From assembly GCA_008012175.1 (NCBI GenBank), contig SSEF01000011.1, positions 6,413 through 70,412 of the forward strand: a stretch of 64,000 nt of DNA. The letters run 5' to 3'. This stretch comes from Candidatus Moraniibacteriota bacterium (GTDB lineage: Bacteria; Patescibacteriota; Minisyncoccia; Moranbacterales; UBA1568). The notes below the pieces were generated by a model. It was not told the DNA's origin, searched no databases, and saw only the letters and a list, made by a program, of their open reading frames with translations. The translations under genes were made by a program, and so were the position numbers. This document shows positions 12,221 to 56,752 of the stretch, one piece after another (the first letter of the stretch is position 1; the number at the start of each line of letters is the position of its first letter).

Positions 12221-12267
12221 GAGAACCTCCACAATTCTTCTCTTCTCTCCTTCTCTCTGTTCCTACT

Positions 12268-23856: not shown

Positions 23857-24432
23857 TTATTCCGAGGCTGGAGCGTCGTACTCGTCTTCGCTATTCAGAA
23901 TCCAGAACTCGTCCTCCCAAGAGCGCTCCTGCTCTCCATCTTCCAAAGAGGGCTGTTGCGGTCGGGGCTCTTCGTCCTCCGAAGAAGAAGAAGAAGAAGA
24001 AGAAAACTGTTGGTGTAGCCGCAGCAGCAGCAGCTGCTCTTCCTCCTCGCATTTAAACTCCTCGGAGGCCGGCTGAGGAGCCTGAAGAGGAGCGGCCGGG
24101 GGCTCGATCGAGGAGAGCATGGCTATGGTGGCCGACAACCGACTATTTTCCCACTTGCAAGCGAGACCATTGTGCGTGATTATGGTCATGTCCTCGCTGG
24201 CGTTATGGAGGCACTGGTACAGCTCGAGCTTCGCGGTCAAATCACGAATGTGCTGCTCCAGCGCGTCAATGTATTCCTGCCGCCGCTGCCGACACTTTCT
24301 AGCCGCGATCCGGTTGCGCTCGCGCCGCCTGTCTTGCGCCTCCGGGTTTGGCGTCGCAGGAGGTTTCGGTTGCTCCGGCTTCCTCGCTGCCGGCGCCCCT
24401 TCCGACAATACAGAAGTTTTCTTTTTAGTCAT
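23857..24432 (-). CDS. bZIP transcription factor.
   Basis: RRERNRIAARKCRQRRQEYIDALEQHIRDLTAKLELYQ is a canonical basic region N-x7-R plus a leucine zipper. There is an acidic Ser-rich C-terminus. Confidence 0.7.
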   Translation of the reverse strand: MTKKKTSVLSEGAPAARKPEQPKPPATPNPEAQDRRRERNRIAARKCRQRRQEYIDALEQHIRDLTAKLELYQCLHNASEDMTIITHNGLACKWENSRLSATIAMLSSIEPPAAPLQAPQPASEEFKCEEEEQLLLLRLHQQFSSSSSSSSEDEEPRPQQPSLEDGEQERSWEDEFWILNSEDEYDAPASE

Positions 24433-24592
24433 TGTGTGTGTGTGTGTGTGTGCATTCGCGTTTGCGTGGGAACATAGGTTTTATACTTTATTCTATGACG
24501 TACTCCATTCTCCATGGCAACAGCTCGTTGTGTTTCGTTAAGTGCACTCCTTCTGTTGCGTAGCGAGGAGCTTCGTTAATGTAATGCGGGTG

Positions 24593-24612
24593 CACTATAA
24601 AGATATAAAGGG
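24593..24612 (+). promoter_or_regulatory. TATA box (CACTATAAAGATATAAAG) upstream of the kinase gene.
   Basis: It is about 30-45 nt upstream of the ATG at 24638. Confidence 0.45.
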
Positions 24613-24637
24613 AACGAGCGAGCAACAACGATTTTAA

Positions 24638-25874
24638 ATGAAACCAAAGAAAATGAGCAACACTAATATTCTGCAACAACAGCAGCAACAGAAACGAAGC
24701 AGTTTGCCACGCGGAGCAAAGACTCTAGCGAACGAGCTGTTTAAAAGTCTAGCCCAGCAAATGCATCCGCGGTGGCGAAGGACCACCGAGAGGCCCGGCA
24801 CCAGCAAGCCCCCTTCGGTCAAGTCTGTAGGGGCGGTGGACGGCAGTTGTGGCAGCTGCGTCCCAGCCGACCAGCCGCCGCAGCCCTTCTCGGACGACAT
24901 TTACTTCACAGGCCCCATTTACTCGGGGCACTTTTCGCAAGTATGGCAGGGCACAGCCAATAGAGCGAACCCCACCAAGATTGTGGTCAAGTTTAACCGA
25001 AGCGTTAAAGATTTTGAGTACGAGTACGCCCTGCTCAACTATATGCGCCGCTTCACTAGGACGCCGTCGCCGCATCTACTCTATTTGAGCTTTTTGTGCC
25101 CCGTCGCAAACAATGGGATGCCGCCCGGTCTCGGGTTTGACCGAGCCATTTGCGACCTCAGTCAGGTGGTCCGCTTCTCGGTCTCTCTGGACCGCATCGC
25201 CCGCATGGCTACCGAAATTTTTGAGGGCCTGGCCGCGCTACACGACGAGTACGACATTGTTCACACCGACATCAAACTGCAAAATATTTTTGTCTTTTCG
25301 CACGCCATCAAATTGGGTGATTTTGGCTGCGCGCTTCTCAGACGGCCATCTGCCATCCTCCCGCAATGCCCCGACATTGGCCGCCTCGTGGGCAACCCGG
25401 AAGTCACGAGCGTCCCTTTCCGAGCCCCCGAAATTTCCGCAAGTAAGATTTTGTGTGTGTGTGTGTGTCTCTAACACTAATGTCGAGCACGCTAACTTGT
25501 CTCTCTTAGAAAGCCCCGATTTGAACGAGAAGCTCGATGTCTGGAGTGCAGGCGCCGTTTGTTTTGCTCTATTGACTCATGGCCAGTTTCTGATCGATTT
25601 GGCCGGGGCCGAGACCAAGGCGGAGCAGCGGCGCACTCGCTTCGAAAAACTGCTTCGTTTGTTTAACGCCAAGGACAAGGAGGAATCCTTTGAAGGGCGC
25701 TTGGCCCGGCTGGCGGACAAACAGTTTAGCCGCGAGCAGTTGGCGCTTTTTGACCCGCTGTGGCGGGCCGTTTTCGACTTTGACAACAAGAGCCGGGCGA
25801 GCGCTGCTGAGACGGCCCGGCTCCTCAGAAACTTTATTTTGCCTCGCATCGACGAGCCGTTAATTTTTGAATAG
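24638..25874 (+). CDS. Ser/Thr protein kinase, 2 exons (24638..25442, 25510..25874), with a 67-nt intron.
   Basis: Gly-loop GPIYSGHFSQVWQG, IVVKF (the VAIK Lys), HTDIKLQNIF (catalytic loop), KLGDFG (DFG motif) and APEI are present. DVWSAGAV (subdomain IX) follows the GTAAGA...CTCTCTTAG intron, which contains (GT)9. A TATA lies about 35 nt upstream. Confidence 0.75.
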
Positions 25875-25929
25875 TTTTTTAATAAAAAGTTTTTAACAGT
25901 ACTCTCTTTCTCTCTATCTCTCTTTTATT

Positions 25930-26607
25930 ATGCAACGAGACTTGTCCAAGTTGCCGAGCGCGAGCGCTATTCTTAGCCCGCTCAGCATGCCGCAGCTCCA
26001 AAACATTGTGGCCGATATTAGCACGGACCTGGCCGTCACAGAGCAAATTGTGGCGAGCCTTGAGGCCCGCGTAGACGAAAAGCTAGCTTCGCTACAGCGC
26101 GCCCTCGTGCCTGTCGGCTCGATATTCTGTTTTTCCAGCGGCCAAGTGCCGGCCAATTTTCATTTGTGCGACGGCTCGGCCTTCTCTAAAGCCGATTTCC
26201 CCGAGCTATTCGCCGCCGTCGGCAGCACGTACACGACGACCAACTCTCAACTCTATTTTAATATTCCCGATTTACGTGGCATGTTTGTGCGCGGCCACGA
26301 CTACGACCGGGGCGTGGACTCGCAAAAGAAGCGGCCGCTCGGGTCCGTCCAGGCCAGCCAGACGAGCATGCCTTCTTCGGGCCCGTTTCAAGTCAGCCCG
26401 GCGGGCAACCATCAACACACTACGTTCTTTTGGTACGCGCCACTCTCCGGAGCCGGCAACTCAAACTTTGTGGCCGTGTCGAGTTTGGGCGGATCGGTCA
26501 ATGTACCGACCACCATGAACGGAGCGCACTCCCATCAAATTTCAGGCGGAGACGCGGAAACGTGCCCAATTAACGTATCGCTGAATTACATCATCAAGAT
26601 TGTTTAG
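25930..26607 (+). CDS. Phage tail-collar domain protein.
   Basis: PVGSIFCFSSGQVPANFHLCDGSAFSKADFPELFAAVGSTYTTTNSQLYFNIPDLRGMFVRG is the Collar consensus. AHSHQISGG lies downstream. Confidence 0.7.
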   Translation: MQRDLSKLPSASAILSPLSMPQLQNIVADISTDLAVTEQIVASLEARVDEKLASLQRALVPVGSIFCFSSGQVPANFHLCDGSAFSKADFPELFAAVGSTYTTTNSQLYFNIPDLRGMFVRGHDYDRGVDSQKKRPLGSVQASQTSMPSSGPFQVSPAGNHQHTTFFWYAPLSGAGNSNFVAVSSLGGSVNVPTTMNGAHSHQISGGDAETCPINVSLNYIIKIV

Positions 26608-26707
26608 CGCTTGTTGTCTGACTGGCGCTCGCCGATAAAAGAGAGCACTTCTCGAGGACACAGCACATATCTAACAAGCTATGCCAAGACGACGACAACC
26701 AAGGAAA

Positions 26708-27178
26708 ATGAACAAAAGAGTCTACCTGGCCAACTGCCTCGGCTTTTGCAGCGGCAACAACAACAACCTAACCCAAATTGTAGGGAAATTGGAGACCGCC
26801 GGCTTCACCGTATTCGAACCCTTCAGCGCTGCCACCGCCGCGAACGCTCAACAGCAAGCGGCCGAGTCAGCGGGGAGAGCCGAGCGCATCTTCCATCAAA
26901 ACATTGAGGAAATGGAGATGTGCGACTTGGTCGTGGCCCTCCTGGACGGTAACGGAATGTCGGTCGACGACGGAGTTGCGTTTGAAATGGGCTTCTGCTA
27001 TGCGAAAAAGAAGCCAGTGTATGGCATTCGCTCGGATATGCGCACCTGCGAGTTTGATTTGCCCGTGAATCTGCAACTCTTCTACGCGTGCGCCTCTCTT
27101 GACGGTCAAGAGCGTCGTCTTTTCCCTTCAGTAGAAGCGCTCATTTCGGCGCTCCGCCAAGAAAAACGAGCTGTGTGA
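26708..27178 (+). CDS. Nucleoside 2-deoxyribosyltransferase / DNPH1-like protein.
   Basis: VYLANCLGF...NLTQIVGKLE..GFTVFEPF, then CDLVVALLDGNGMSVDDGVAFEMGFCYAKKKPVYG. This is the fold signature, with the conserved Glu in the FEMG context. Confidence 0.55.
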   Translation: MNKRVYLANCLGFCSGNNNNLTQIVGKLETAGFTVFEPFSAATAANAQQQAAESAGRAERIFHQNIEEMEMCDLVVALLDGNGMSVDDGVAFEMGFCYAKKKPVYGIRSDMRTCEFDLPVNLQLFYACASLDGQERRLFPSVEALISALRQEKRAV

Positions 27179-27200
27179 CTATTTCCGCCCATGTTTTTTA

Positions 27201-27206
27201 AATAAA
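27201..27206 (+). terminator. AATAAA polyadenylation signal after the 26708..27178 gene. Similar AATAAA signals are found at or near stops at about 2545, 11468, 16377, 20045, 25881, 30514, 38145, 41885, 45818, 54044, 58902 and 59802.
   Basis: A canonical hexamer recurs within 0-30 nt of stop codons throughout the window. Confidence 0.5.
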
Positions 27207-27502
27207 AGAAGCAAACTCTAAACTAAATGTCTTTTTCGGGTTTTCAGGCCGCTCCAAAAGAGAGTCGCCTTAAAGAGGGCCGCTCAAAGAGAGCTTTAAA
27301 AAGAGGGCCGGTTTTAGATTTGAGACGGGCATTAAAACAAAAAACTTGATAATGAAAACAAAAAACTTTTATTTGAAAAACTTTATTTGAAAAATTGAAA
27401 ACAAAAACTTGAAAACAAAATTGAAAACTTGAAAACAAAAACTTGAAAACTTTATTTGAAAAAACTTCTTAAAACCCATTTGCAAAAGAAAAAACATGCC
27501 CA

Positions 27503-28483
27503 CTAGTTGAGCAGGCACGCGTGTACGAGGTACAAGTTCTCGGCGCCCTCCTTACTCGTCGGCGCCGTCTCCCGGACCTCGTGCAAGCATCTCAGACTAC
27601 TGCTCGTTTTTATCAACTTGTACTTCCACGTCATCGTCTCCACAGTAAAATAAATCTCCGACGTGATCTCGTCTAGCCGGCCAAAATAAGCATGCAAATC
27701 CACGTTAACTGCAATCTCTACGATACGCGCGCGCCGGCCACTCTTCTCTATATAGTCTCGCAGCCGCTCGTCCTCACCATACAAGTCGCTCACCTGGTTT
27801 TCGACCGTGAGAGGATACTGTTCTTCCAGAATGACGGCCAGCTTCTCGTCTTTGCACCACTCTTTAGAGTAGACGTCAGGCGGTGATTTGTACGCCACAA
27901 AAAACGCCTTCACCTCGCTCAGCTCGGACGCCTTATAATCGTCTTGGGTGGAGTTCCCCGATGCGACCGACTCCTCGTCATCGGAGTAGTATGTGTCGTC
28001 GTCTTCTATTTTCGCAAAATGATAACTCGGAGCCGCCTCGTGGACTTCTGACTCTTCCGAAGGAACCGGAGCATCAGGCGGGGCCTCGTGGACTACTGAC
28101 TCTGGTGCTTCCGAAGGAATTGGAGCATCAGGCGGAGCATCGGAGCAGACTTTCTTTTGCGGGCCAGCGATCTCGCTCATAGATTTGCGTTTCCGCGCTT
28201 GGTAAAAACTCGTGTAATTATCCAAGGAATTGCATTTGTCGATGAGAAAATCGTTCGAGTATTCTTTCGAATTGAAATCCAAAGAGTATTTATAACTAAA
28301 GCTCGTATTGCCGCGAATCCTGGCCCACCTCTCCTGGCTGAGAGGTTCGCCGCGCATGTATTTTGCCCGTGTCTCGTTACATTCAGCAATAACCTCATCT
28401 ACGGACTTCAAAAACTGCTCCCGCGCTTCGCGAATTTGAGTGAGATACGATTCATAGAATTCGCAAATTTCCTTTGAGCTCAT
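27503..28483 (-). CDS. Hypothetical protein with a PDAP(I/V)PSE repeat.
   Basis: 326-aa ORF of complex composition. An AT-rich repeat spacer with AATAAA lies downstream at 27190-27480. Confidence 0.45.
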   Translation of the reverse strand: MSSKEICEFYESYLTQIREAREQFLKSVDEVIAECNETRAKYMRGEPLSQERWARIRGNTSFSYKYSLDFNSKEYSNDFLIDKCNSLDNYTSFYQARKRKSMSEIAGPQKKVCSDAPPDAPIPSEAPESVVHEAPPDAPVPSEESEVHEAAPSYHFAKIEDDDTYYSDDEESVASGNSTQDDYKASELSEVKAFFVAYKSPPDVYSKEWCKDEKLAVILEEQYPLTVENQVSDLYGEDERLRDYIEKSGRRARIVEIAVNVDLHAYFGRLDEITSEIYFTVETMTWKYKLIKTSSSLRCLHEVRETAPTSKEGAENLYLVHACLLN

Positions 28484-28606
28484 GTTGTCATCAGTTTAAC
28501 TTTATCTATATACAAACAAGCGAGCTTAAACTCTTTTATACTTGCTGAGTTGCTCCGCTAGAAACGTCGGCGAGCTCGAACCTGAAACGTTAACGATATA
28601 GAACAA

Positions 28607-28670
28607 GCAACTCGAAATCGAACTCAATGCTACCGTAGCAACTCGAAATCGAACTCAATGTTACCGTAGC
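28607..28670. repeat. 31-nt direct repeat x2 (CAACTCGAAATCGAACTCAATGYTACCGTAGC) in the divergent promoter region.
   Basis: Direct reading. Confidence 0.8.
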
Positions 28671-28758
28671 GACCGAGTTACGTTGGCGTAAAATCAAGAG
28701 AGTATTTCTAACTTGAAAAATTCGCGCAGTTGGTATTATTTGATCTTGTGTAAAAGAA

Positions 28759-28797
<39 letters not shown>

Positions 28798-28827
28798 AAT
28801 AATTACAAACAACAACAAACGACAAAT

Positions 28828-30489
28828 ATGGTCCTCTCCTCTCTCCGAGACATTTCGCTTCGAAGCGCCTTGTGCACCATCAAAAATCTCAAAAGGCTCC
28901 GGCCGCTAACCAACATGAACCTGGGTGAGTCGAGCGCCCTGCGCGCGCACATGTTCCTCCATTGCCCCAACTTGTACCGAGCCATGTTTAAGAGTAATTT
29001 CGCCGGATTGGCCTACGACAAAAAGGACGCGGACGCATGGGAGGGCTACATCCAAACCGAACGGGATATGCCGCCGCCGGAGAGCGCGCTCTACGACGAC
29101 GAAGAATTTTGTCAAATGCTCGTGCGTAAATGGCTCTTTTCCTACATTCCGGCGGCGAAGAGGACGATGCGCCTCGTACACTATTGCTTCAAAACCAATC
29201 GGGTTTCGGCGGAGACTGTGAACGAGTACCCGCACGTGGCCTGCTTGTACCCCAATTCTATGTTTCTCATGAAGCTACAGCACATAACCCCCGAGATCAT
29301 TGAAACCTATTTTGCGACCGGCCGGGCCGACCTGGCGAAGGACCTCGACCCGACACAATACATTTGCTTTCGGCAAGTGCTGAACCAGAGACCCGCACTG
29401 GCCGCGGCCGCGCCACCAGCTACCTTACGCTCTTTGCAGTGCCTATATCTGAGGAGGGCAGTGCCGGGGCCAATAGTAGAAATTGCGCGCCAGTTCGAAA
29501 TAGTCGAACTTTATCCCGCCGACTACTTCACCGACCAAGTCTGTCGAGACCTGCTGGCCAAGACCGCGTTTAGGCGGCTCGCGAAGCGGCTACGTATGCT
29601 CGAAAGCATGTGTCAAGCGGCTTTGATGCAAGACGTCGAAAATTACAGGTACATTGCGAAAACCGGGCACTGGCCATTGGAGTGGATCATGGCCATTTTG
29701 TCGCGGGCCTCCGACCCGGGCGAGGCCTGGCGATTCATGTATCCGAAGCACCTGCCCCGGAGCAGTATGAGCCAACAAGAGAAGGAGGAGCTCTGTTGGC
29801 TGCTCATACGCGACGCGCCCAACGCGAGCCCGGGCCACTTGGAGGACGAGGATTTTGATGCGCTCACGCTCGAGCAGAAACGCTACTTTTTGATGTACGC
29901 ATCTCTGAAGGTCGCAAACGTGGCCCTCGAATGGCTCAAGATGTTTGGTGGGATCGGCGACGTGCTTACGCAGGAAATTTGCGATCACTTGATTTTGACG
30001 GTGAAACCCTCCAATGGCGTGGAACAACTGGTGCAAAACAATATTTTTATCCTGCTTCCGAACCAGTTCAAAACGGAGCGGCTATGCACGCACTACATAA
30101 AACATGAGCTCAACTGCTGGCCGCGGGTGCCCAAGACGAGCGAGAATCTAAAATTGTGGTTTGAAACGCACAAACCGGCCGCCAATTGCGACGCGTACTT
30201 GGAAGAGTTTCCTATGGATTGCGCCGAGACGCGAAAGATTATAGCTCACTTCCCCAAGGTGGTTGCGCGCCTCTCCAATCTCGACCTCTCTGTGGCCACC
30301 GAGTTTTGCTTGGAGAACCGAGAATGTCTCGAGTACATTAGAGAGCCCGCCCTCTCCAACGTTTTAACAAAATGCGCCAAGAACGAGAGCGGGGAGTGGC
30401 GAGAAAACTGGCAAGAGAATTTGCGCTTTCTAAAGGAGCACTGCCACAAACCGTTCCAGATGCTCCTCTTTTACTCTTTTCTACATTAA
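28828..30489 (+). CDS. Hypothetical protein, paralog A of a convergent pair.
   Basis: 553 aa. It shares HCPNLYRAMF/DDEEFCQMLV and a long central block (RLRMLESMCQAALMQD...LIRDAPNASP...KRYFLMYASLK) with the 30600..32327 product. Confidence 0.55.
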   Translation: MVLSSLRDISLRSALCTIKNLKRLRPLTNMNLGESSALRAHMFLHCPNLYRAMFKSNFAGLAYDKKDADAWEGYIQTERDMPPPESALYDDEEFCQMLVRKWLFSYIPAAKRTMRLVHYCFKTNRVSAETVNEYPHVACLYPNSMFLMKLQHITPEIIETYFATGRADLAKDLDPTQYICFRQVLNQRPALAAAAPPATLRSLQCLYLRRAVPGPIVEIARQFEIVELYPADYFTDQVCRDLLAKTAFRRLAKRLRMLESMCQAALMQDVENYRYIAKTGHWPLEWIMAILSRASDPGEAWRFMYPKHLPRSSMSQQEKEELCWLLIRDAPNASPGHLEDEDFDALTLEQKRYFLMYASLKVANVALEWLKMFGGIGDVLTQEICDHLILTVKPSNGVEQLVQNNIFILLPNQFKTERLCTHYIKHELNCWPRVPKTSENLKLWFETHKPAANCDAYLEEFPMDCAETRKIIAHFPKVVARLSNLDLSVATEFCLENRECLEYIREPALSNVLTKCAKNESGEWRENWQENLRFLKEHCHKPFQMLLFYSFLH

Positions 30490-30599
30490 TATTGTTTTTT
30501 AATTTTTATTTTCAATAAAAAATGTTAAAAATATTTTTGCGTTTTTTTTTATTTTAACGTTTTAAAAATGATGAGGGCTTTATGTCCGCGCCAAGATGC

Positions 30600-32327
30600 C
30601 TAAAAACTCGGGTCGTAGGATTGGCACAGGGCGTACGTCTTGAAGGCGTCCTGCTCGTTCTCCCGCACAAACAAGAGGTTCTTTCGCCACTCGGGGAGCG
30701 GCTGCACCTCTTTATTGTCCTGACCGGGTCGTACACCGTAGCACAGCGGCATTAGAACGTCGGCATAGGGGCACGATTCGAGTATTTGCGGAGCTAGGCA
30801 CTTGTCGTTTTCGAGACAGAGGGCTGCGACAAATGAAATTCGCAGGTCCGGTTGAGTAATAAGGAATGGGGCCAGTTTTGCGAGTCGCGGGACCAGTTTG
30901 GTGAGGTCGGGGAAGGATAGGATTTCTCGGCACGTTTCCTTGTCGAAAAACTCGTCGTTTCCGTACATGTCTAGCCACATCTCCAAGTACTCGGGGTCCT
31001 TGGGTATGTGTTTCCAGCAGGCCCGTTGCTTCTCCATAAAGTAGAAGCCCAGGATTGGCGTTCTTTGGCTATGCATGTAAAACATGTGGTGCACCTCCCG
31101 GATGAGCCGCTCCCAAATCGCCTCCGTGAACGAGCTCTCAGGTAAATTGGAGCAGGCCTCTAGTATAGAAGGCAAATAGTAAGGGGTCGGAAGCTTATAA
31201 TGCGACAGATAGTAGCGTCGTTGGCTCGGAGTCAAGTTGAGTCGAGCGACCTGCTCCATCGAAATGAAAGAGGGGTTTGCTCCGGGCGCGTCCCGCAAGA
31301 CTCCCCAATAGAACTTTTGTCGCGCCGTGGCACTTTTTGGCAGGTGCTCTTTCGAGCTCAGAAACGACCAGGCTGCGCGCGTGTCCGGCGCTAACTGCAG
31401 GACCCATAGAGGCCAATGGTCCGGCCACTGTTCCGGGTAATCGATCTCCGGATAGACGGAAATGTCCGCTTGGAGCGCCTCTTCGCACATCAAACGCATT
31501 TGTTGCATCCTCCGCGGCATGCTTGTATAGCGCACATTTTGGAGGATCTGCCGGCAGCGGTCGCGGGTGAAAAAACTCTCGACGAATCCGGTCGCCTCCC
31601 ATGCCGCCTGGTCGCAAATGAGCTGGGTGATGGCCGGAGGAGGGTCGTTCAGGCTCTCGAACAAGAAACTCAGATTCATTTGCACGAGATTGTTGTTTTT
31701 GGCGATGTGCTCGGCAATCTGTGTATCGTGCGCGGCCATAACTTCGCGAATTTTGTTGAGGACCGGGGTCTGGAAGACGAACGAGGGGTAGGGCTTCCCG
31801 TCGAGCAGATTAGAGACGGTCTCGAACGTCACGTTGTCGAGTGACAAGAACCGAAACGATTCGTCGAATAGGCTCGCTTCGCACGGGAAAAGGTTCGCCA
31901 AAAGCCGGAGCCGGGCTGACATGTCCGCCCGCCCCACCAATAAAGAGAAGTAGCACTTGGCCACTTTTGGCGTAAACTTCTCGGTCGGCACCAAGTGGCA
32001 CAAGTCTCTTTCAATGAGCAGCACGCAAAAGTCCTCATTGTCGAGCAGGTCGGGGCGTTCCGCCAACTGCGACGGCCTGAGCAACCGGCCCCACTCGTGC
32101 GCGCGCGTAAAATCAAACTCGATGCCGCGCAGGGAGTCGCCGAAAAACATGCGGTACATGTTGGGGTGGTTGTGAAAGAGGTACGTTCGAAAGATGGGCG
32201 ATTCGTTGAGCACCTTAGACTGACTCGACAGCCAGCTCCGACAGCGCCGGCGCCGTTTCGAATTGAAGAAAGACTTTAGGGCCTGTTCGCTTAAAGGAGC
32301 AACCATTATTGCGCTGCGCACATACAC
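30600..32327 (-). CDS. Hypothetical protein, paralog B of the convergent pair.
   Basis: 575 aa. NHPNMYRMFF/DNEDFCVLLI and RMQQMRLMCEEALQAD...VLRDAPGANP...RRYYLSHYKL are collinear with paralog A. Confidence 0.55.
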   Translation of the reverse strand: MYVRSAIMVAPLSEQALKSFFNSKRRRRCRSWLSSQSKVLNESPIFRTYLFHNHPNMYRMFFGDSLRGIEFDFTRAHEWGRLLRPSQLAERPDLLDNEDFCVLLIERDLCHLVPTEKFTPKVAKCYFSLLVGRADMSARLRLLANLFPCEASLFDESFRFLSLDNVTFETVSNLLDGKPYPSFVFQTPVLNKIREVMAAHDTQIAEHIAKNNNLVQMNLSFLFESLNDPPPAITQLICDQAAWEATGFVESFFTRDRCRQILQNVRYTSMPRRMQQMRLMCEEALQADISVYPEIDYPEQWPDHWPLWVLQLAPDTRAAWSFLSSKEHLPKSATARQKFYWGVLRDAPGANPSFISMEQVARLNLTPSQRRYYLSHYKLPTPYYLPSILEACSNLPESSFTEAIWERLIREVHHMFYMHSQRTPILGFYFMEKQRACWKHIPKDPEYLEMWLDMYGNDEFFDKETCREILSFPDLTKLVPRLAKLAPFLITQPDLRISFVAALCLENDKCLAPQILESCPYADVLMPLCYGVRPGQDNKEVQPLPEWRKNLLFVRENEQDAFKTYALCQSYDPSF

Positions 32328-32531
32328 TTTTCTTATAGATCAGATATTTGATAAGTAAACCGTCTAGCAGAGTCTCCTTTATACGGAGCCAGCCAAACAA
32401 GAATACAATGTTGCTATGTGCAACACAAACACAATTTTTTCTTGTTTAATAAGTCTTCGTAAAGTAGCCCTGCTCGCCAGGCGCTCTGCTCACCAAGTAG
32501 CTTTGCTCGGAGAGGCGAGAGATTGACAGGC

Positions 32532-32572
<41 letters not shown>

Positions 32573-32639
32573 AAAAAAGAGAGTTGAGTATTTTTTAAAA
32601 ATTTTATTTCAAGTCAAAAAAGAGAGGGCGAGCGGGCGC

Positions 32640-33554: not shown

Positions 33555-33600
33555 GAACGCATCAGCCGGGCCGGGGGACGGCTTTCCAGTGCTTATTGTT

Positions 33601-35184: not shown

Positions 35185-35575
35185 TTCAAGTCCAGTTAGC
35201 TAGTTGGTCCGGTTAGTTAGTTGTCGGTTTGGCAGGCGCAAACGGCTCCTTTTTATAAACAACGGTTGCGTCTCTTTTTTCTTTTTTGTTTTTTCGATTC
35301 AGGATTCCTACGCTCTTGTTTTCGGTTTCCATGCTCTTGTTTTTCGATGACTCGATTTCTTGTTTTCGGTTTCTTTGTTTTCGGTGGTTCTGACAGCGCT
35401 CTTGTTTTCGGTTTCCACGCCGCTCTTGTTATCAAAAGAGAGCAACATAGAAACCATTGTGCTCCCGTTTCATTAACGTATTCCGGCCGGGGTATTAATA
35501 GAAGTTTCACAACTATCTCTGCACTCATTTAATAAAGTTAGCAAAGTTGAACACACAACCAAGCGATAACAAAAA

Positions 35576-35632
35576 GCACTAGCAAAGCACTAGCAAAGCA
35601 CTAGCAAAGCACTAGCAAAGCACTAGCAAAGC
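35576..35632. repeat. (GCACTAGCAAA)x6 tandem repeat immediately upstream of the 35636 ATG.
   Basis: Direct reading. Confidence 0.9.
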
Positions 35633-35635
35633 ATC

Positions 35636-38113: not shown

Positions 38114-38229
38114 ACTTTTTTTATTAACTTGAGTGTGCGTGTGTTTTTTCTCAATAAAATTTAGTTAGCCCAACTTTTTTCTTTTTATTTTTTATAAATG
38201 TCAACTTGCTCCTCTTTGAAAAAACAAAA

Positions 38230-38636
38230 ATGCCCCCAACGAAGAAACCCCGCCGACCTATCGGCCGCGTACGCCAAGGAACCTTGCGAAAATTTGGCTA
38301 TAGCTCGAAGGCCTCCCGCGCCTCCCGTAAAAAGGCAGTATGCGCGGCCTCGAAACGATATGGCAAGGTCCCTATAATCCGAAAACTAAATTTTCTAGCC
38401 AACATGACTCGTAAACGGTAGGCAACCAACCCGGCCAGAAAATGTTTGCCGGCCTTTTGATCACACAACTAATTCTTTTTTCTCTTTTGTATAGCAATCC
38501 CCAACTAAGCAACGTGTATCGTCGGGACATGAATGTCGTCCGTAAAGAATGCAAGGGCCGGCGAGCAAAGTCGGCCCGGGGCGGCGAGGACGAGGAGCCG
38601 CATGAGGAAGAGGAGTACCCTGACGAGGACAACTAA
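38230..38636 (+). CDS. Small basic protein with an acidic tail, 2 exons (38230..38417, 38495..38636), with a 77-nt intron.
   Basis: MPPTKKPRRPIGRVRQGTLRKFGYSSKASRASRKK... The GTAGGC donor is after MTRK(R) and the acceptor is TTTTGTATAG. Exon 2 reads NPQLSNVYRRDMNVVRKECKGRRAKSARGGEDEEPHEEEEYPDEDN. Confidence 0.5.
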
Positions 38637-38690
38637 AAAAAAGAGAGAGAGAGCACGGTTCTTGTAAGTTTTTTATTTGTTAAAAAAATT

Positions 38691-40571: not shown

Positions 40572-40676
40572 TTTAGCAATAAATTGTGTGTGTGCGAGAG
40601 AGGAAGTTTGCCATGTTGCAATTTTTTATTTATCTTAAATTTACCTAGCAAATGATCAACAACTCTCGCACACAGC

Positions 40677-41894
40677 ATGTCCTTTTCAAAGACTTGGTTC
40701 GGCAGCTCAAAGGCCAAAAAGAGCGCGCGCTCATCGTACGCCTCTACCACCGCCCCGACTTGCCATGTGAAGCGATGCGGGGGCAACGTGTTCAAATTCT
40801 TTCCGAATCGGAAGGCCGCCACAGAAAAGTGGCAAAGTGTCATTCGAAACTGGACCGAGGATGACTTTCTCGTGAAACAAATGCGCCGGGACGACGTGTT
40901 TTACAAGGCCTCGAACATGATTTGCGGGCCGACGAACGCCGGAAAGTCCATGTTCATTTCGTGGTTCCTGCTCAATCTGATGCACGTGCACCGCGACAAG
41001 CGCTTCCTCATCTTCATCTTCTCGGAAACGAGCCAGGCGCTCACCAAACTCGAAGACATTCAATCCATCTTGCTAAAAGACGAACCGCCCCTCGTCGTCT
41101 CCGACTACGACCGAGCGTGCAGCGAGCGCAAGAACCTCACCGTGTGGACCAACAAAATCGAGCAGATCAAGCAGGCGTTCAACACGATCGAGGCCTACTA
41201 CAAGGCCCTGCAAGAGCTGACCGAAAGCGGGGACGTGCCCGCCACCAACTTGCCCCAGCTCGTGTTTAGCAAGCTCCAGCAGGAGAACCGCGATTTCGAC
41301 CTGGGGCTCGTCGAGAAGCTGGCGAGCTTCACCGACTACATCTTCTACTTTGACGACTGCCTCGAGACCGTCCTCAACCCGAAAGCGAACGGGGCCAAGG
41401 AGCTCTTGTCCAAGTTGCAGACAACGAATCGGCACTTTTTCATCACGACCGTGTACAGCTTGCAAAACATCAAAATCAAGTCCGAGGTGTTTTGCGGCAA
41501 CCTCACCAACATGTTTGTGATCGGCCCGTTTAACGAGATCGACACGACCGTCTTTGAAAAATACAACGCCCTGCTAAAGGCCCGTTTCGGCCAGCAGTCC
41601 AACATGGCGCTGTATAACGCCGGGCTCGCCCAGATATTCAAAAAGCCGGCCTACACCGCACAGCTCTTCTCTAAGCGCTTTCCGGACGCCATCTATTGGG
41701 GCATTTTGCCCCTCGAGTACATAAAGAAGATGGAGGCCAAGGAGGCCCGCCGAATCGGATTGAAGCGGAGCGCCAACGAATGCGTCAACGAGCACATGAA
41801 AAATAAGCGGCCCGCCCTCCGCCCGTCGGTCCCCTCGGCCTCTTCGGCCTCCCCGGCGACGATAATAAAAACCATAAAGCTCAATAATAAATAA
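40677..41894 (+). CDS. A32/FtsK-HerA-like DNA packaging ATPase.
   Basis: Walker A ICGPTNAGKSMF and Walker B IFYFDDC are present, with the downstream NRHFFITT / VFCGNLTNMFVIG arrangement typical of NCLDV A32 and polinton/adenovirus packaging ATPases. The N-terminal CHVKRCGGNVFKFFPNRKAATEKWQ is a zinc-finger-like (THAP-like F-x-FP...W) stretch. Confidence 0.65.
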   Translation: MSFSKTWFGSSKAKKSARSSYASTTAPTCHVKRCGGNVFKFFPNRKAATEKWQSVIRNWTEDDFLVKQMRRDDVFYKASNMICGPTNAGKSMFISWFLLNLMHVHRDKRFLIFIFSETSQALTKLEDIQSILLKDEPPLVVSDYDRACSERKNLTVWTNKIEQIKQAFNTIEAYYKALQELTESGDVPATNLPQLVFSKLQQENRDFDLGLVEKLASFTDYIFYFDDCLETVLNPKANGAKELLSKLQTTNRHFFITTVYSLQNIKIKSEVFCGNLTNMFVIGPFNEIDTTVFEKYNALLKARFGQQSNMALYNAGLAQIFKKPAYTAQLFSKRFPDAIYWGILPLEYIKKMEAKEARRIGLKRSANECVNEHMKNKRPALRPSVPSASSASPATIIKTIKLNNK

Positions 41895-41901
41895 AGTTTA
41901 T

Positions 41902-44035: not shown

Positions 44036-44106
44036 GTTGTATATAAATGTATGTGCAAGTTTTATTGCAACTCGTTAAAATTTACTTTCTTATATAGAAA
44101 AGGAAA

Positions 44107-45831: not shown

Positions 45832-45905
45832 AAAACAACTCGTTTCTCTTGTTTCTCTTTTTATTAAATTTTACAATACACAAAAACGAAGAAGAGGGCA
45901 CACTC

Positions 45906-46775: not shown

Positions 46776-46827
46776 TGGGGATGTTTGTCTGAAACTGACA
46801 AAATTTCGATTATGGTCGCCAAATTCA

Positions 46828-47406: not shown

Positions 47407-47469
47407 GTTAGAGAGAAAGAGAGAGCGAGAGAGACAGAGAGAGAGAGAGAGTAAAGCAACAAGAGTTTT

Positions 47470-49064
<1,595 letters not shown>

Positions 49065-49121
49065 GTTTTTGTTTGCATAAAATAATTTTATTTTAGAAAA
49101 AAAAGAAAAAACGGCTCCGTT

Positions 49122-51552
49122 TTATATGTATTGGCGCGCGTGCGCAATCGCATTCTCGTAAAACCTCTCAAAATTATACGTATTCGTGCCGTGCACGAGC
49201 TCTTGTGTTTTTTCTGCTCGAGGCTGCGCGGGCGCGCGCTTCTTCCCAGGGGAGACAGTTTCGGCCAGGTTGACGACAAAGCCTCCGCGGCGAGAGCACG
49301 GCATAAAGAAGTCGTAGACGGCCAAGCTGCAAAGGCGAAACCATTGAGACGAGACTGAAAGAGAGGGTAAGAGAGAAAAATGTATTTGTGAGAGAAGGAG
49401 GAGAGTGAAACTTACCGGAGAGACGGCGCGCCTCACATTTACGCGCCATTTCGAGATTTTGCGTGAGCAATTTGTACTCGGAAAAGAACCAGACCCGGCT
49501 GAGACCGATCATGAACACGACGAAATAGTTGGTCAAGTGGCCGCAGATGCGCAGGAAACACGATATGCTATCGCGGCCGGTGCCACTGCTAATCACCTCT
49601 CGGTCTGTGTCGTAGAGGCCGCAAATGTGTTTGTTTTGCAAAAAACAAGAGCGCATCTTGGACCACACCTCGAGCGCGCCCGTCAGGTTCTCTTTGGGCA
49701 GGAGGCCGCTAGGACTGTTCCTCATCGAGTCGCTCAAGAGTTGCTTAAAGTTGTTCTCGAGAAACGAACAAAACGGCCGATCGAAGAATGTGAGCCAGCG
49801 GTTGGAAAGGGCGCAATCCAGTTCCTCTATCGTGTGCAACAAGCGAGCTAGTGTGAGAGAGGGAGACGGCAAACTTAGAGTTTGTGAGAGAGTGTGTGTT
49901 GAAGAATAAGTACTTACCCGGCGGGGCGGCGGAGGCCGTCAGGGCCGTTTTGCTCACATTCTGAAACTCGAATAACGAGAGGCTCACTTTTTGGTCGAGA
50001 CTGAGCAGACCCCCGCCACCGCTCGTTTCGGGCGGCTGTTCTTTGAGGGGTCCGTCCACGAATTTGAGGAGGGCCGCTTCGGCGGTAAAGACGGGCGGCT
50101 CGGTGAATTGCACGATAAAAATTCGCAAAATATTGTTCACGAGAGCCAAGTGCTTCCGAGCGGCGGCCCCGTCCGACTTGATGCCGTCGAGATAGCACAT
50201 CCAATAGGCAAAAACGCATGTCAAGGGCAACTCGTTCATAATCAAAGCCAATTCCTCGGCTCCTCTAACCGCCGTGTCCACTGCCTCGGCTCCTCTAACC
50301 GCCGTGTCCACTGCCTTGGCTCCTCTAACCGCCGTGTCCACTGCCTTGGCTGCCTCGTTTCCGTCCACTGCCTTGGCTGCCTCGTTTCCGTCCACTGCCT
50401 TGATCGCCGTGCTCGCCACGTTCGCCGACTCGCCGCGTTCGCCGACTCGCCGTTTCTTGGCCGGACCCTCACCACTGTTCACGCTCCTCTTATCTGCCAC
50501 TGCCTCCACGTTCCTTTTATTTGCTCCCGTCTCCGGGGCCTCCGTCTCAGAGTCATCGCAATAGTCAATCTTCCGTTTCAGAGGATGACGGGGCGGCAAG
50601 GGCGTCTTCACCACTCCGAGCGGCCCTCGGTACCAGAGAAAGACGGACTCGAACGCCTGGCGCAGATACCGAATGTCAAAGAACGAGCACGAAATGTAGT
50701 CGTTGGCCGAGAGCATGGCATATACCTTCAACGCTAGCCTAAACACATACTCGCGCTCGATCCGCGAATAGGTCCGTGCAAGCCTATCCGAAAGTTCGTC
50801 CAAGTCTTTGATGACCGGATGGCTGTGGTTGATGGCCGCGTTCAGCAGAAAAACCTCGCTCTCGCCGTACTCCGAGCGCCGTATCGAATAGACTCCGGCG
50901 CGCTGGCAGGACGGGAAAAACGACACGAAATCGGTGTCGTCCGAGAAGATCGAGATCCGGCTGACAAAAGTGTTTTGCAGGCTCGAGTCGGGTGAAACGA
51001 GCACGAGCTCCCGCGTGCCGCGCTCTTCTTCTTGCTCGAGCAATTGGTGGCATCGCGACACGATATACTCGTCCGTGTCCATTTCGGCCTCTTTGATCTT
51101 GATGAGCCCGACCGCGTTCTCGTCGTACTGGGAGTAGCGCAGGTGCAGGGCCGCGCGAAGCTCCTCGAGATAGTACTCGAGCATAGCATAGTCCGCCTCG
51201 ACCCGTACGTCTTTGGACGTGCGCACATTGGTTTCGGCGCGTCGGTAGCAGCGCCACATTTTCATAAAGTTGCGCGAGAACTTGCTGTCAAAAATGAGCT
51301 CGATCGTGCGAGCCTCTTGCCTATACAGATCGTCGGACTTGAGCAGCTCGAATTGGAGCAGATCGGCGCACACAAAGTCCACAAATTCGGCGCTAAATTC
51401 GCTCGTAGTGAGGTTGGCGAAGCGAGCGCCCATTTGATGCGTGCGCAGTTTCAGCCAGTAGAGGTTGGCGTCGATAAACACATGGCTCGACGACGCTTTC
51501 GGCACCTTGACTTGGCTGGCGGTGAATAAATCATTGAAGCCGACAATTCCCA
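49122..51552 (-). CDS. FEN1/XPG-family nuclease of about 760 aa, 3 exons (51552..49918, 49847..49416, 49354..49122).
   Basis: The N-domain is MGIVGFNDLF...HVFIDANLYWLKL. The I-domain is ELVLVSPDSSLQNTFVSRISIFSDDTDFVSFFP (compare GKVYAAATEDMDCLTFG). The introns are 70 nt (G|GTAAGT...CACTAG) and 61 nt (G|GTAAGT...CTTTCAG), and both junctions preserve the frame of the ORF-track pieces. CTTATATAATTTG lies about 47 nt upstream and is shared with PolB. Confidence 0.6.
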
Positions 51553-51594
51553 TCGCAATAACAAAACACACAAAACTTCTTGACAACACGATAC

Positions 51595-51612
51595 AAATTA
51601 TATAAGAGAGAG
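51595..51612. promoter_or_regulatory. Palindromic TATA element (TTATATAAG) between the divergent FEN1-like and PolB genes.
   Basis: It lies about 47 nt from the FEN1 ATG (51552, minus) and about 76 nt from the PolB ATG (51682, plus). Confidence 0.5.
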
Positions 51613-51681
51613 AGGAATTGTGTGTATTTGTGTGAAAAGCACAGAGTGTGGGGGAAGAAAATTTGCTTTTTATGGGAGAAA

Positions 51682-54047
<2,366 letters not shown>

Positions 54048-54075
54048 AATTTAAAAAACTCTCAAATCTTTATTT

Positions 54076-54714
54076 TTAAAATTGTTTCGATTCGCTGCCG
54101 CCGCCGCCGTGCTGCATCAAGTAGAAGCAGTAGCGGCAAGGGTACGTCTGGCACGTGTTGTTGTTTTGCTCGGCGATAAACGCCAAGTGCGGGGGCAAGA
54201 CGTGCTCTGGCGAGCTCTGATTGATGCAGCACTGGGCCACGACCGAGCTCAGGTTATACGTGGCCACGATGAGTTCGTGGATAGTGTCATTGTTGTAGTA
54301 GCGGCACTCAAACTGCTCGGCGCGGGCGGACTCGAGGGTCGAGACCGTCGAGCCGAGCCAGTTCCACGACGCAGCCTTCTGTAGAATGTGCGAGAGCGCT
54401 TGCGAGTCGTTGTGGTTGACAAAAACGAGTGTGATGAGGGCGGCGAGGAGAATGAGCATGCGCGGCGAGAGAACTTGCAGCACTTCGCCGACAAACTTGC
54501 GGCAGCAAACTCCCCACCCATCACCGGCTTGCGGCGGCGTTCCGTCTGAGACTTGGTGGTAGCGCACCGATCTCTTCTTGCCCCGGCGGCCGTCGACAAG
54601 GGGCTCCATTTCGACGGCGGCGGCAGCAGAGGCTGCAGTAGCAGCAGCAGGCGGCTTCGGTGCCGTCGTGGCCAAATAGATGGGCGGCTGTTGTTTCTCC
54701 TCCCTTGCGGCCAT
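54076..54714 (-). CDS. Type II membrane glycoprotein-like protein.
   Basis: Probable start MAAREEK. It has a cytoplasmic basic segment, the TM helix MLILLAALITLVFV, and a Cys-rich ectodomain with N-x-S/T sites. Confidence 0.45.
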   Translation of the reverse strand: MAAREEKQQPPIYLATTAPKPPAAATAASAAAAVEMEPLVDGRRGKKRSVRYHQVSDGTPPQAGDGWGVCCRKFVGEVLQVLSPRMLILLAALITLVFVNHNDSQALSHILQKAASWNWLGSTVSTLESARAEQFECRYYNNDTIHELIVATYNLSSVVAQCCINQSSPEHVLPPHLAFIAEQNNNTCQTYPCRYCFYLMQHGGGGSESKQF

Positions 54715-54768
54715 AAATTCTCGAGTCACAAGAGAAAGCGGCGACTGAACTAGAGATAGCAAGACGAA

Positions 54769-55752
54769 ATGTCCAGTGAACAAGAATTTTACACAAACCT
54801 CAGTAGGCTATGGTCTCCCTCGAGCAAAAGCTTTTCGATAGATCCGGGCGTTAGAAATTTTGGCTTTTCGAGTCTCGAGTCGCTCACTCACTTGTGCCTC
54901 GACTACGACTCGTTTGCAAATTTAGAGAGAAATTTACCCAAACTTTTCCGCAGCCTGTTTGCAGTCATCGATCCGTCGACGGCCGTTTTCTATATTGAAA
55001 ACCAACGGGCCTCGTGCCAGAACCAACGTATCGAATGGCTGACCCGGGGCATCCTCCACGCCCTAGGAGCCGGCCGCGTCATAGGCGTCGCGCCGTTCAC
55101 TCGAAACAAATGGTGTCGTCTCGAGCTGGATTGGACCTATGTAAAGTGTAGTACGCGGAAAGCCTTCAAACTGGCTCACGACACGAATCCCAAGTTCCGG
55201 CAACTCGTAACGGGCTGGAAGCGGTACCATATAAATATTCCCGCATTGCAACTCAAAGCAACACAAAATATTTTCGAACTCGCCAAATCGGACGAATTTG
55301 TGGACACTGTGCTCTTGTTGGCTATCAATGCGCGTAAAAAAGTGCCCCGTCAAAAACTCTCTTCTAACGAGCCTCGCAAGATTAAGCGCCTCGCCAATAC
55401 CAGACGGATCAGTAAGGAAAAGACTGCCACATCCGCGGCCGCTGCCGCAACCTACTCTCCAACAACTGCAGCAAGCGCATCAACAACACACTCTACAGCA
55501 ACAACAAGCTCAACAGCGGCAGCCGCACGCTCTACAGCAACAACAAGCTCAACAGCGGCAGCCGCACGCTCTACAGCAACAACAACAGCGGCAGCCGCAC
55601 GCTCTACAGCAACAACAAGCTCAACAGCGGCAGCCGCACGCTCTACAGCAACAACAACAGCGGCAGCCGCACGCTCTACAGCAGCAAACATTGTGGCAAG
55701 ATGGGCAGCAGCAACTTCAAGCAGAGAGGCCGAGACAAAAGAGGCCTGCTGA
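54769..55752 (+). CDS. RuvC-like Holliday-junction resolvase (poxvirus A22 / Ydc2 family) followed by a S/T/A repeat tail. The 3' end is uncertain.
   Basis: SFSIDPGVRNFGFSSLE matches the RuvC motif I (GIDPGxxxxGxAV). AVFYIENQ matches the motif with the catalytic Glu. The tail derives from 39-nt tandem repeats and overlaps the TBP-like ORF in another frame. Confidence 0.5.
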   Translation: MSSEQEFYTNLSRLWSPSSKSFSIDPGVRNFGFSSLESLTHLCLDYDSFANLERNLPKLFRSLFAVIDPSTAVFYIENQRASCQNQRIEWLTRGILHALGAGRVIGVAPFTRNKWCRLELDWTYVKCSTRKAFKLAHDTNPKFRQLVTGWKRYHINIPALQLKATQNIFELAKSDEFVDTVLLLAINARKKVPRQKLSSNEPRKIKRLANTRRISKEKTATSAAAAATYSPTTAASASTTHSTATTSSTAAAARSTATTSSTAAAARSTATTTAAAARSTATTSSTAAAARSTATTTAAAARSTAANIVARWAAATSSREAETKEAC

Positions 55753-56752
55753 ACGGTCGACGGAGCCGAAACCGGCCCCAAAAATCCGCCGCATCGACGA
55801 CAGGCCCGGGCACTCCCAAGTGGCCGATAGCTTGTTTGAACGGCTGGCTGGAACGGAGAGAACGGTCGCCGGGAGCGGAGAACAAGCTGCGGCCATAGCC
55901 AACGAGGAGCTTTTTCGAGCGTCGACGTGCTTCAAAAACGCCGTGTGCACCGTCACCACCAATCTAATCTTCAATCTCCGCCTATTTACGAATGTCTTTG
56001 GCGGCCAGTTCACAGGCAAGCTCCCGGCGAACCGGCTCGTCGTCAAGATTGGCGGCCACCGATACACCATAATCACGTACTCGTCGGGGAAAATCATCCT
56101 AACCAATTACTTTTTCCTCATCAACAACTCGGCCGTCTACAACCTCTTTGTCAACCTGCTCGAGCTCTTGTACGCCCTCGGGATCGCCAAGTTGCAACCC
56201 GGAACGGGGTATTGCGAAAAATGTAAAAATGACGACGACGAGGACGAGACCGGCGGCAGCTGCAGCCAATGCCAGCAGCGGAGGCAGATCGAAATGTTGT
56301 TCCTCATTGAGAACTGCATATTTTCCTTCCAAATCGCGCCCCACTTCTTCGACCGCCGCTTCGCCAACATTGTCCATGAGAGCGAGAGCACGCTCTCCAT
56401 GGTTTTGCGGAAGCCCCGAAACATGCGGGCCGAAGGCTTGAGCGCGTTCCACGACTACTTGAAGTCGGTCCTCGCCGCCGAGCACTACCAATTCACGTCG
56501 AGCGCTTCGTGCAAACACGACAACTTTCCCTCGGACCTGGTGAAATTCGCCATTCAGCGGACCGACCACGCCAAGCTGGCCAATTACAAGAGCCCGGCTT
56601 CGCGAAAGCGAAACAACAACAATTTTGTCATGCAAAGGCTCGCCATTCTCATCTTCCGCAACGGAAAAATGATCGTCACCGGCATGCAAACATGCGAAGA
56701 CCTCGAGACTACTTTTAAGATTTTGTTTGCTATTGTGAATTTTTTTTTCTAA
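55298..56752 (+). CDS. TBP-like (TATA-binding protein fold) protein with an N-terminal Gln-rich repeat. The 5' end is uncertain; an alternative ATG is at about 55328.
   Basis: The first repeat ...RLVVKIGGHRYTIITYSSGKIILTNYFF and the second repeat FVMQRLAILIFRNGKMIVTGMQTCEDLETTFKIL match the two TBP core repeats (LIFxSGKxVxTGAK). The polyQ (QQQQAQQRQPHAL)x5 is reminiscent of eukaryotic TBP N-termini. Confidence 0.55.
   Translation: MWTLCSCWLSMRVKKCPVKNSLLTSLARLSASPIPDGSVRKRLPHPRPLPQPTLQQLQQAHQQHTLQQQQAQQRQPHALQQQQAQQRQPHALQQQQQRQPHALQQQQAQQRQPHALQQQQQRQPHALQQQTLWQDGQQQLQAERPRQKRPAERSTEPKPAPKIRRIDDRPGHSQVADSLFERLAGTERTVAGSGEQAAAIANEELFRASTCFKNAVCTVTTNLIFNLRLFTNVFGGQFTGKLPANRLVVKIGGHRYTIITYSSGKIILTNYFFLINNSAVYNLFVNLLELLYALGIAKLQPGTGYCEKCKNDDDEDETGGSCSQCQQRRQIEMLFLIENCIFSFQIAPHFFDRRFANIVHESESTLSMVLRKPRNMRAEGLSAFHDYLKSVLAAEHYQFTSSASCKHDNFPSDLVKFAIQRTDHAKLANYKSPASRKRNNNNFVMQRLAILIFRNGKMIVTGMQTCEDLETTFKILFAIVNFFF

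Follow-up and report, generated by a model that had tools for sequence, protein, structure and literature searches.

Host-type transcription signals in a probable large DNA virus filed as a bacterium

Which machinery expresses a densely coding stretch of DNA that carries TATA boxes, polyadenylation signals and introns? The question is raised by a 64-kb stretch (here called the window) of contig SSEF01000011.1, a 95,747-bp entry labelled in GenBank as 'MAG: Candidatus Moraniibacteriota bacterium'. A first-pass annotation, made from the letters of the window, had read it as a giant-virus-like element with a nuclear expression strategy of the RNA polymerase II (Pol II) type. Our analysis supports a related reading, which we regard as probable: the window comes from the interior of the genome of a large, uncultivated double-stranded DNA (dsDNA) virus of a unicellular eukaryote, with its genes laid out as host-type Pol II units. 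Because of its FtsK/HerA (A32-type) packaging ATPase the virus is placed in the Varidnaviria, on the side of the nucleocytoplasmic large DNA viruses (NCLDV). A free virus of a heterotrophic protist in wastewater is the best reading.

The window has a GC content of 54% and is densely coding on both strands. Non-overlapping open reading frames (ORFs) of at least 70 aa that start with ATG number 56 and cover 86% of it; the GC content is 56% in coding and 44% in intergenic DNA. A curated set of 46 genes was obtained by dropping spurious antisense ORFs and merging split genes. The Pfam screen covered window ORFs of about 100 aa or more, about 50 genes, and around two thirds of the window ORFs belong to no Pfam family. 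Those assigned are a bZIP protein, a protein kinase, a TATA-binding protein (TBP)-like protein, a fragment of a family B DNA polymerase (PolB), two phage tail-collar proteins, a giant LamG-RCC1 protein, a nucleoside 2-deoxyribosyltransferase, a 2OG-Fe(II) oxygenase and an ankyrin protein, with weak matches to PCNA, a superfamily 1 (SF1) helicase and a RING finger. The 64 kb yielded neither tRNA genes nor Rfam matches. The coding density, the mostly family-less ORFs, the A32-type ATPase, a DUF5771 protein and the lack of tRNA and Rfam matches argue for a virus and not a cell.

Two window proteins have exact counterparts in GenBank (100% identity): the PolB fragment in E6Q06_01975 and the packaging ATPase in E6Q06_01925. 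The viral and eukaryote-type gene content rules out the bacterial origin given in the label; the gene content is not bacterial, and the contig was therefore misbinned. That it is filed as a Candidate Phyla Radiation bacterium is a practical warning. The sample came from secondary-treated wastewater of the Orange County potable-reuse plant (PMC6212505), and near-identical DNA, representing strain variants, is present in four sequencing runs from this one plant.

Expression signals, encoded factors and introns

Counted on both strands, the window has 78 copies of the hexamer AATAAA, where base composition predicts about 18. The claim that it sits at or just after most stop codons holds: in 29 of the 46 curated genes a sense copy lies between -10 and +60 of the stop, compared with 3.5±1.7 in shuffled sequences (maximum 10, n=1000), and 32 genes have one when the range is extended to +110. 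For the 56 raw ORFs and a range of -6 to +60 the count is 28, compared with 5.3±2.1 in dinucleotide shuffles of the flanks (maximum 12, n=300). Seven copies in the curated set overlap the stop codon itself, which is TAA in 30 of the 46 genes. Sense 3' flanks hold 37 of the 78 copies, a density of 6.4 per kb versus 0.16 per kb in sense coding sequence, and between convergent gene pairs AATAAA is found on both strands. In the closely related locus L009 the enrichment is seen in five of nine genes (0.9 in shuffles).

TATA boxes, which had been noted upstream of many genes, are likewise enriched. TATAWA lies within 150 nt upstream of 19 curated genes (6.1±2.2 in shuffles), at distances of 6-98 nt from the ATG and frequently in the form GTATAAAA; TATAAA lies within 120 nt upstream of 15 of the 56 raw ORFs (2.9±1.6 in shuffles). 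Upstream of the window genes no further common motif was evident, for instance none resembling the early promoters of cytoplasmic giant viruses, which are AT-rich. With frequencies far above chance, the cis-signals support a type read by host Pol II, by the host cleavage and polyadenylation specificity factor (CPSF) and by the host spliceosome. Metatranscriptomes exist among the runs SRR6439730-40 of the source project (PMC6212505), and the regular arrangement of stop codon and AATAAA makes the claim directly testable on them.

Both transcription factors predicted at first reading were recovered. The bZIP protein matches Pfam bZIP_1 (E 7.4e-11, 42.4 bits, cut-off 27.6) and bZIP_2 (E 1.1e-9, above its cut-off); its basic region RERNRIAARKCRQRR contains the N-x2-AA-x2-CR signature (NRIAARKCR) and is followed by a short leucine zipper. 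The TBP-like protein reaches E 3.3e-8 and 33.7 bits with Pfam TBP (cut-off 22.9), a match that comes from the second repeat, and its C-terminal 286 aa gave 35 sequence matches in PDB, every one of them a TBP (best E 1.2e-3). From its sequence it is a predicted TATA-binding factor with two tandem TBP repeats and an insertion, the first repeat (..TIITYSSGKIILTNY..) being recognised by eye only. Its N-terminus carries a Q-rich tandem repeat (55481-55687, units of 39/72 nt) that recalls the poly-Q N-termini of cellular TBPs.

Orthologues of the TBP-like protein are encoded in L009 and L023. The TATAAA of the window gene (55230-55235) lies in coding DNA of the A22-like gene upstream (codons ..YHIN..), and both this internal TATAAA and the AATAAA overlapping the stop are conserved in L009; the transcription units therefore overlap. 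Further nuclear-type factors occur in the relatives, namely Forkhead proteins (L010:5788-6180; L024:2522-2857), a TFIIB zinc-ribbon protein (L022:19699-20559) and a SET-domain protein (L022:12157-12720). A Cys-rich protein is always encoded next to the TBP gene; its AlphaFold2 (AF2) model, with a mean predicted local distance difference test (pLDDT) score of 51.5, is too poor for use.

Spliceosomal introns, also claimed by the first-pass annotation, are borne out. Six GT-AG introns of 67-105 nt with CTAAC/CTAAT-like branch sites and CT-rich tracts were identified, five of them backed by more than ORF continuity. The first intron of the PolB gene (53053-53144, 92 nt) shifts the frame in the window, whereas the homologues P0003 and P0004 run uninterrupted across the junction; comparison of these sequences proves the intron, and its splice sites can be read in the DNA. 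The second (53760-53864, 105 nt) is in frame, and the exon downstream of it is conserved in L009. With the kinase intron (25443-25509, 67 nt, GTAAGA..GCTAAC..TTAG) removed, subdomains VIII-XI are restored and the Pfam Pkinase match improves to 70.4 bits, from 43.8 bits unspliced. In the SF1 helicase gene, splicing of 61510-61592 (83 nt, minus strand) connects Walker A with Walker B and lifts the AAA_19 score from 19.0 to 27.5 bits (cut-off 25.1). The fifth intron (38418-38494, 77 nt) lies in the DUF5771 gene, where the Pfam match of the spliced 109-aa product crosses the exon junction. (CT)n/(AG)n tracts are located in promoters and introns, and the contigs of the virus in Logan break at them.

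The window ORFs of about 100 aa or more contain no Pfam domain of RNA polymerase (RNAP), capping enzyme, poly(A) polymerase, TFIIS or VLTF3. The Rpb1 motif NADFDGD and the Rpb2 motifs GEMERD and HGQKG are absent from six-frame translations of the window and six related loci (181 kb, of which 117 kb come from the relatives); the scan gave one chance match with one mismatch, on the wrong strand. Among the roughly 90 called genes of the relatives, the Pfam entries on record include no RNAP, capping enzyme or poly(A) polymerase. The first-pass annotation had listed no RNAP subunits and had named a multisubunit RNAP with capping genes nearby as an observation that would speak against its view; neither was found in the 64 kb of the window. 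The absence of RNAP from the examined DNA is meaningful but not conclusive.

Together, the cis-signals, the TBP-like and bZIP factors, the RNAP-free window, the A32-type ATPase and the DUF5771 protein fit a nuclear, host-polymerase-dependent giant-virus-like element, and we infer from them a nuclear location, the use of Pol II and the role of the encoded factors. Viral genes would be laid out as host-type Pol II transcription units, many with a TATA box about 10-100 nt before the ATG, with very short 5' and 3' untranslated regions, an AATAAA cleavage and polyadenylation signal at or right after the stop codon, and short GT-AG introns with CTAAC-like branch sites. The viral genome would be transcribed in the nucleus by host Pol II, with splicing of the transcripts left to the host spliceosome and their cleavage and polyadenylation to host CPSF. 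The TBP-like factor and the bZIP protein may steer this machinery onto viral promoters, to which the relatives would add Forkhead, TFIIB-like and SET proteins. Of the original claim of expression by host nuclear machinery, the part concerning signals, factors, the A32 ATPase and the RNAP-free window thus stands; the absence of RNAP can be claimed for the DNA examined and not for the whole genome. The GC-rich or algal host that had been proposed was a guess and is not upheld: the relatives range from 33 to 54% GC, and the source is secondary-treated wastewater.

Packaging and replication genes

The product of the ATPase gene carries Walker A (GPTNAGKS), Walker B (IFYFDDC) and a further motif NRHFFITTVYSLQ (NRH..SLQ), all three kept in eight homologues. 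Its AF2 model (pLDDT 75) was compared with BFVD by Foldseek, and the best named matches are A32-like ATPases of NCLDV (E 1e-8 to 1e-6), with adenovirus IVa2 also among the fold matches. Against PDB structures the best matches are STIV2 B204, FtsK and HerA, and no terminase is among the matches listed. Pfam Pox_A32 gave no match to this protein and FtsK_SpoIIIE only E 0.03. The A32 call is thus confirmed at the level of the predicted fold, with Pox_A32 silent, as an A32-type FtsK/HerA packaging ATPase.

DUF5771 is a Pfam family derived from clusters of NCLDV proteins (PMC8715426 supplement); it matches residues 17-81 of a small protein with E 6e-10 and 39.7 bits (cut-off 26.2). The protein is very basic and may bind or condense DNA. 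Besides it, small basic proteins are encoded at 17691-18038 and 58935-59306.

The PolB gene, with TATATAAG upstream of it at 51599, encodes polymerase domains only. In PDB it is matched best by PolBs of archaea, with E values no better than 5e-6. A word-indexed search among 5.8 billion proteins returned 11 relatives, and a profile search of 1.84 billion cluster representatives returned about 55 clusters of 575-830 aa before a sharp drop to ordinary PolBs; in IMG/VR and the JGI metagenomes only weak, unrelated PolB matches were obtained. The related locus L023 has a separate 534-aa gene (12222-13826, minus strand) with the PolB exonuclease domain (DNA_pol_B_exo1, ExoI FDIE, ExoII NSTKFD), and by synteny its counterpart would be expected within a few kb to the right of the window. 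As the window PolB is devoid of the exonuclease and a relative carries it separately, the polymerase of the lineage is split into two genes.

Other replication assignments fared less well. For the A22 resolvase, three look-alikes of catalytic motifs are present and the gene is conserved with them in L009; Pfam Ydc2 reaches only E 0.05, Pox_A22 gives no match, no PDB match was found, and hhalign against an unverified sequence of vaccinia A22 gave a pairwise E of 0.02 at a probability of 2%. PCNA is borderline, with a PCNA_N score just under the Pfam cut-off; the three best PDB matches are PCNAs (E 3.4e-4 to 0.015), in the N-terminal domain only. The FEN1 call for the 602-aa gene, which adjoins PolB in L009 and L022, was not sustained: the protein has no Pfam match up to E 10 and no PDB profile match, and hhalign with an unverified sequence of human FEN1 aligned 11 residues only. 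The replication genes, described at first reading as NCLDV-like, are therefore not recognisably so in sequence, with Pox_A22 silent, FEN1 failed and PolB highly divergent; the term applies to the ATPase fold and the DUF5771 family and no further. Neither a D5-like primase-helicase nor VLTF3 was found in the window by Pfam, the sole helicase being of the SF1 Pif1/RecD-like type; the two may be encoded outside it.

The window ORFs have no Pfam match to a capsid protein (Capsid_NCLDV or other); such a gene could be located elsewhere in the genome or have diverged too far. A crude scan of strand and helix propensity gave no clear candidate for a capsid gene, and when family-less ORFs were concatenated (about 4,900 aa) and compared with PDB, a procedure that costs sensitivity, a faint TBP match was the only result.

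Relatives, alternatives and known systems

Related loci from several unrelated datasets are syntenic with the window. They share the gene order FEN1-like gene, PolB, A22-like gene, TBP, Cys-rich protein, 156-aa gene and helicase, and in the relatives the ATPase gene is close to the collar and LamG-RCC1 genes. L009 has 42% GC compared with 54% in the window, and the proteins of the two are 38-62% identical. The relatives also encode a metacaspase, a Ulp1-like protease and a dUTPase.

Several points weigh against a virus that is expressed by host Pol II. The contig is at least 95.7 kb long and the window covers 64 kb of it, so that RNAP genes may be encoded in another part of the genome. In cytoplasmic NCLDV, TBP- and TFIIB-like factors are found together with viral RNAPs as well; taken alone, they are therefore no sign of Pol II use. 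In L010 and L012, which are distant relatives, AATAAA is only weakly enriched, as different hosts would explain. The recovered Logan contigs of the virus are all collinear with genomic DNA. No capsid gene was identified, and the NCLDV-like placement therefore depends on the ATPase fold and one small family.

The main rival takes up the first two of these points: the same virus would have its own multisubunit RNAP encoded elsewhere in the genome, would use host machinery only in an early or partial nuclear phase, and its TBP would serve the viral polymerase. TBP and TFIIB-like proteins, encoded in the window and in L022 respectively, are typical partners of viral RNAPs in cytoplasmic NCLDV. Pandoraviruses and molliviruses combine introns with RNAP genes, which likewise tells against the reading that we prefer; pandoraviruses and Mollivirus are also GC-rich and dominated by ORFans, with spliceosomal introns, a nuclear phase and amoeba hosts from water and soil. 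Their transcripts end at hairpins, whereas the 3' ends in the window are marked by AATAAA and no RNAP was found. None of the usual 8-10 or so transcription-apparatus genes occurs in the approximately 50 window genes or in 117 kb of relatives, AATAAA is positioned at the 3' ends of about two thirds of the genes, and introns are frequent, replication genes included. We consider this rival unlikely.

Less likely still is an endogenised copy, a giant endogenous viral element in a protist chromosome. Integrated forms are known for phaeoviruses. One is also known for a mirusvirus (PMC12768974). Eukaryote-type introns and signals would suit a long residence in the nucleus as well; the 64 kb contain no host-like gene or flank, integrase, repeat junction or shift in composition, gene density is uniform, and the ORFs are intact and densely packed. 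The syntenic relatives of differing GC content in unrelated datasets, together with the near-identical strain variants from one plant, look like a circulating virus.

That the element is a mirusvirus (Mirusviricota) appears very unlikely, and this identity was rejected on the ATPase fold. TBP and C3HC4 RING proteins are core functions of mirusviruses, which also have many singleton genes, GT-AG introns of about 80 nt and WCTAAC branch sites (PMC12768974). The intron-rich orders Okeanovirales and Styxvirales (Medvedeva et al. 2025) are close to the window in strategy, since they have no RNAP, keep TBP and have a predicted fully nuclear cycle, and further likenesses are a very low rate of Pfam annotation and a wide GC range (PMC12768974). 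Mirusviruses have the HK97 capsid and a terminase, and their RNAP-less orders are without PolB, PCNA and resolvase; in the window the ATPase has the FtsK/HerA fold (A32, STIV2 B204) with no terminase among the best matches, HK97 capsid, portal and terminase genes were not detected, and a PolB and a PCNA-like clamp at least occur. A fragment of a compact cellular genome, such as a microsporidian-like or nucleomorph-like nucleus, would account for the introns, the signals and the eukaryote-type bZIP, TBP, PCNA, kinase, RCC1, ankyrin, RING and Pif1-like helicase genes, but is excluded by a gene content with no housekeeping gene, tRNA or rRNA in 64 kb, with about two thirds of the ORFs family-less, with a PolB half-enzyme that has 11 word-sharing relatives among 5.8 billion proteins, and with a viral packaging ATPase, phage tail-collar proteins and DUF5771.

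The probable strategy of the virus, transcription of its genes by host Pol II, is not a new principle and has precedents in nuclear giant viruses without RNAP. Phycodnaviruses have no RNAP, and chloro-, prasino- and phaeoviruses resemble the window element in the same respects as medusaviruses. For medusaviruses, which have no RNAP genes either, these respects are a large dsDNA genome, an A32-type ATPase, a PCNA-like clamp, own transcription factors and reliance on the host nucleus (PMC8557863). All of these viruses have a full-length PolB, a recognisable capsid, D5 and VLTF3 with few or no spliceosomal introns, whereas in the window PolB is split and very divergent, the other NCLDV core genes were not found and introns are frequent. 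The AATAAA-like motif of medusaviruses is not preferentially intergenic (PMC8557863), in contrast to the tight link with stop codons described here. Herpesviruses and adenoviruses share TATA boxes, AATAAA and splicing with the window, herpesviruses also a virus-encoded bZIP protein (PMC7412551) and adenoviruses an FtsK-type packaging ATPase (IVa2); they have other hosts and other gene content, and the window has no herpes-type terminase or capsid and no adenovirus genes.

No description of the lineage was found in the literature. New here are the lineage itself, the split PolB, the unusually clean way in which AATAAA is tied to stop codons, and the wide range of eukaryote-type factors. It is possible, and we propose it tentatively, that they mark a deep lineage, of family rank or higher, of large DNA viruses with an A32 ATPase that depends wholly on nuclear expression by host Pol II, with intron-containing replication genes, a split PolB and its own TBP, bZIP, Forkhead, TFIIB-like and SET proteins, as an independent parallel to the RNAP-less mirusviruses on the Varidnaviria side. 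In that case A32-type large DNA viruses would have shed their own transcription apparatus and taken over the full host grammar of TATA boxes, AATAAA and introns in yet another lineage, and the view that shifts between cytoplasmic and nuclear reproduction recur in giant-virus evolution would be strengthened. The split, highly divergent PolB is a simple marker for the lineage, which standard NCLDV marker screens would miss.

Features of the window and minor observations

The features discussed above and their neighbours are listed in Table 1. The LamG-RCC1 and tail-collar proteins are likely to be surface or fibre proteins of the virion.

Table 1. Positions of annotated features in the 64-kb window.
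Feature	Position	Strand	Basis and remarks
RING-finger (C3HC4) protein	3..1259	-	Pfam zf-C3HC4_3 E 7e-5, under curated cut-off; gene continues past left window end
Gene with putative 83-nt intron (2163-2245)	1803..2545	+	ORF continuity only; AATAAA overlaps stop
LamG-RCC1 protein, 1291 aa	12268-16143	+	kept in relative L012 (two LamG-RCC1 paralogues)
PCNA-like sliding clamp, divergent	16599..17618	-	Pfam PCNA_N 19.9 bits (cut-off 20.3)
Phage tail-collar domain proteins	22630-23766 and 25930-26607	+	kept in L012
AATAAA of bZIP gene	23804..23809	-	50 nt past stop
bZIP transcription factor gene, 191 aa	23857..24432	-	Pfam bZIP_1, bZIP_2
TATAAA of bZIP gene	24480..24485	-	about 50 nt upstream of ATG
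Ser/Thr protein kinase gene, 67-nt intron	24638..25874	+	Pfam Pkinase; two TATAAA at 24596-24609; AATAAA 9 nt past stop
DUF5771 small basic protein, 109 aa, 77-nt intron	38230..38636	+	Pfam match of spliced product
A32-type (FtsK/HerA) genome-packaging ATPase	40677..41894	+	motifs, predicted fold
Conserved 602-aa gene, divergent from PolB gene, called FEN1 at first reading	49745..51553	-	motif resemblance only (MGIVGF.., IDANLYW, SDDTDFVSF)
Family B DNA polymerase, polymerase domains only, 722 aa spliced	51682..54047	+	Pfam DNA_pol_B E 3.8e-16; two introns; AATAAA overlaps stop
Putative RuvC/A22-like resolvase	54769..55340	+	motifs SIDPGVRNFG, FYIENQR, SDEFVDT
TBP-like factor	55328..56752	+	Pfam TBP; AATAAA 56751-56756 overlaps stop (TAATAAA)
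Cys-rich (CxxC..CxxC) conserved protein next to TBP gene	56837..58870	+	4 homologues only; syntenic in L009, L023
SF1 (Pif1/RecD-like) helicase, 861 aa spliced, 83-nt intron	59834..62502	-	Pfam AAA_19

The plus-strand ORF at 378-938 is an antisense shadow of the RING-finger gene and not a gene. Two convergent ORFs of about 560 aa each (28828-30489, plus strand; 30600-32306, minus strand) belong to no family and look paralogous, with shared stretches such as ..HCPNLYRAMF.. and ..HNHPNMYRMFF... Perfect short tandem repeats occur in non-coding DNA at 16441-16585, 28762-28796, 32536-32570, 35573-35633 and 53788-53859; among the repeats, one of 37 nt in 3.9 copies lies in the 3' flank of the PCNA-like gene and one of 11 nt in 5.5 copies directly 5' of the ATG at 35636. 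The cumulative GC skew has its minimum at about 28000-30000 of the window, which may mark a replication origin or just a switch of gene orientation.

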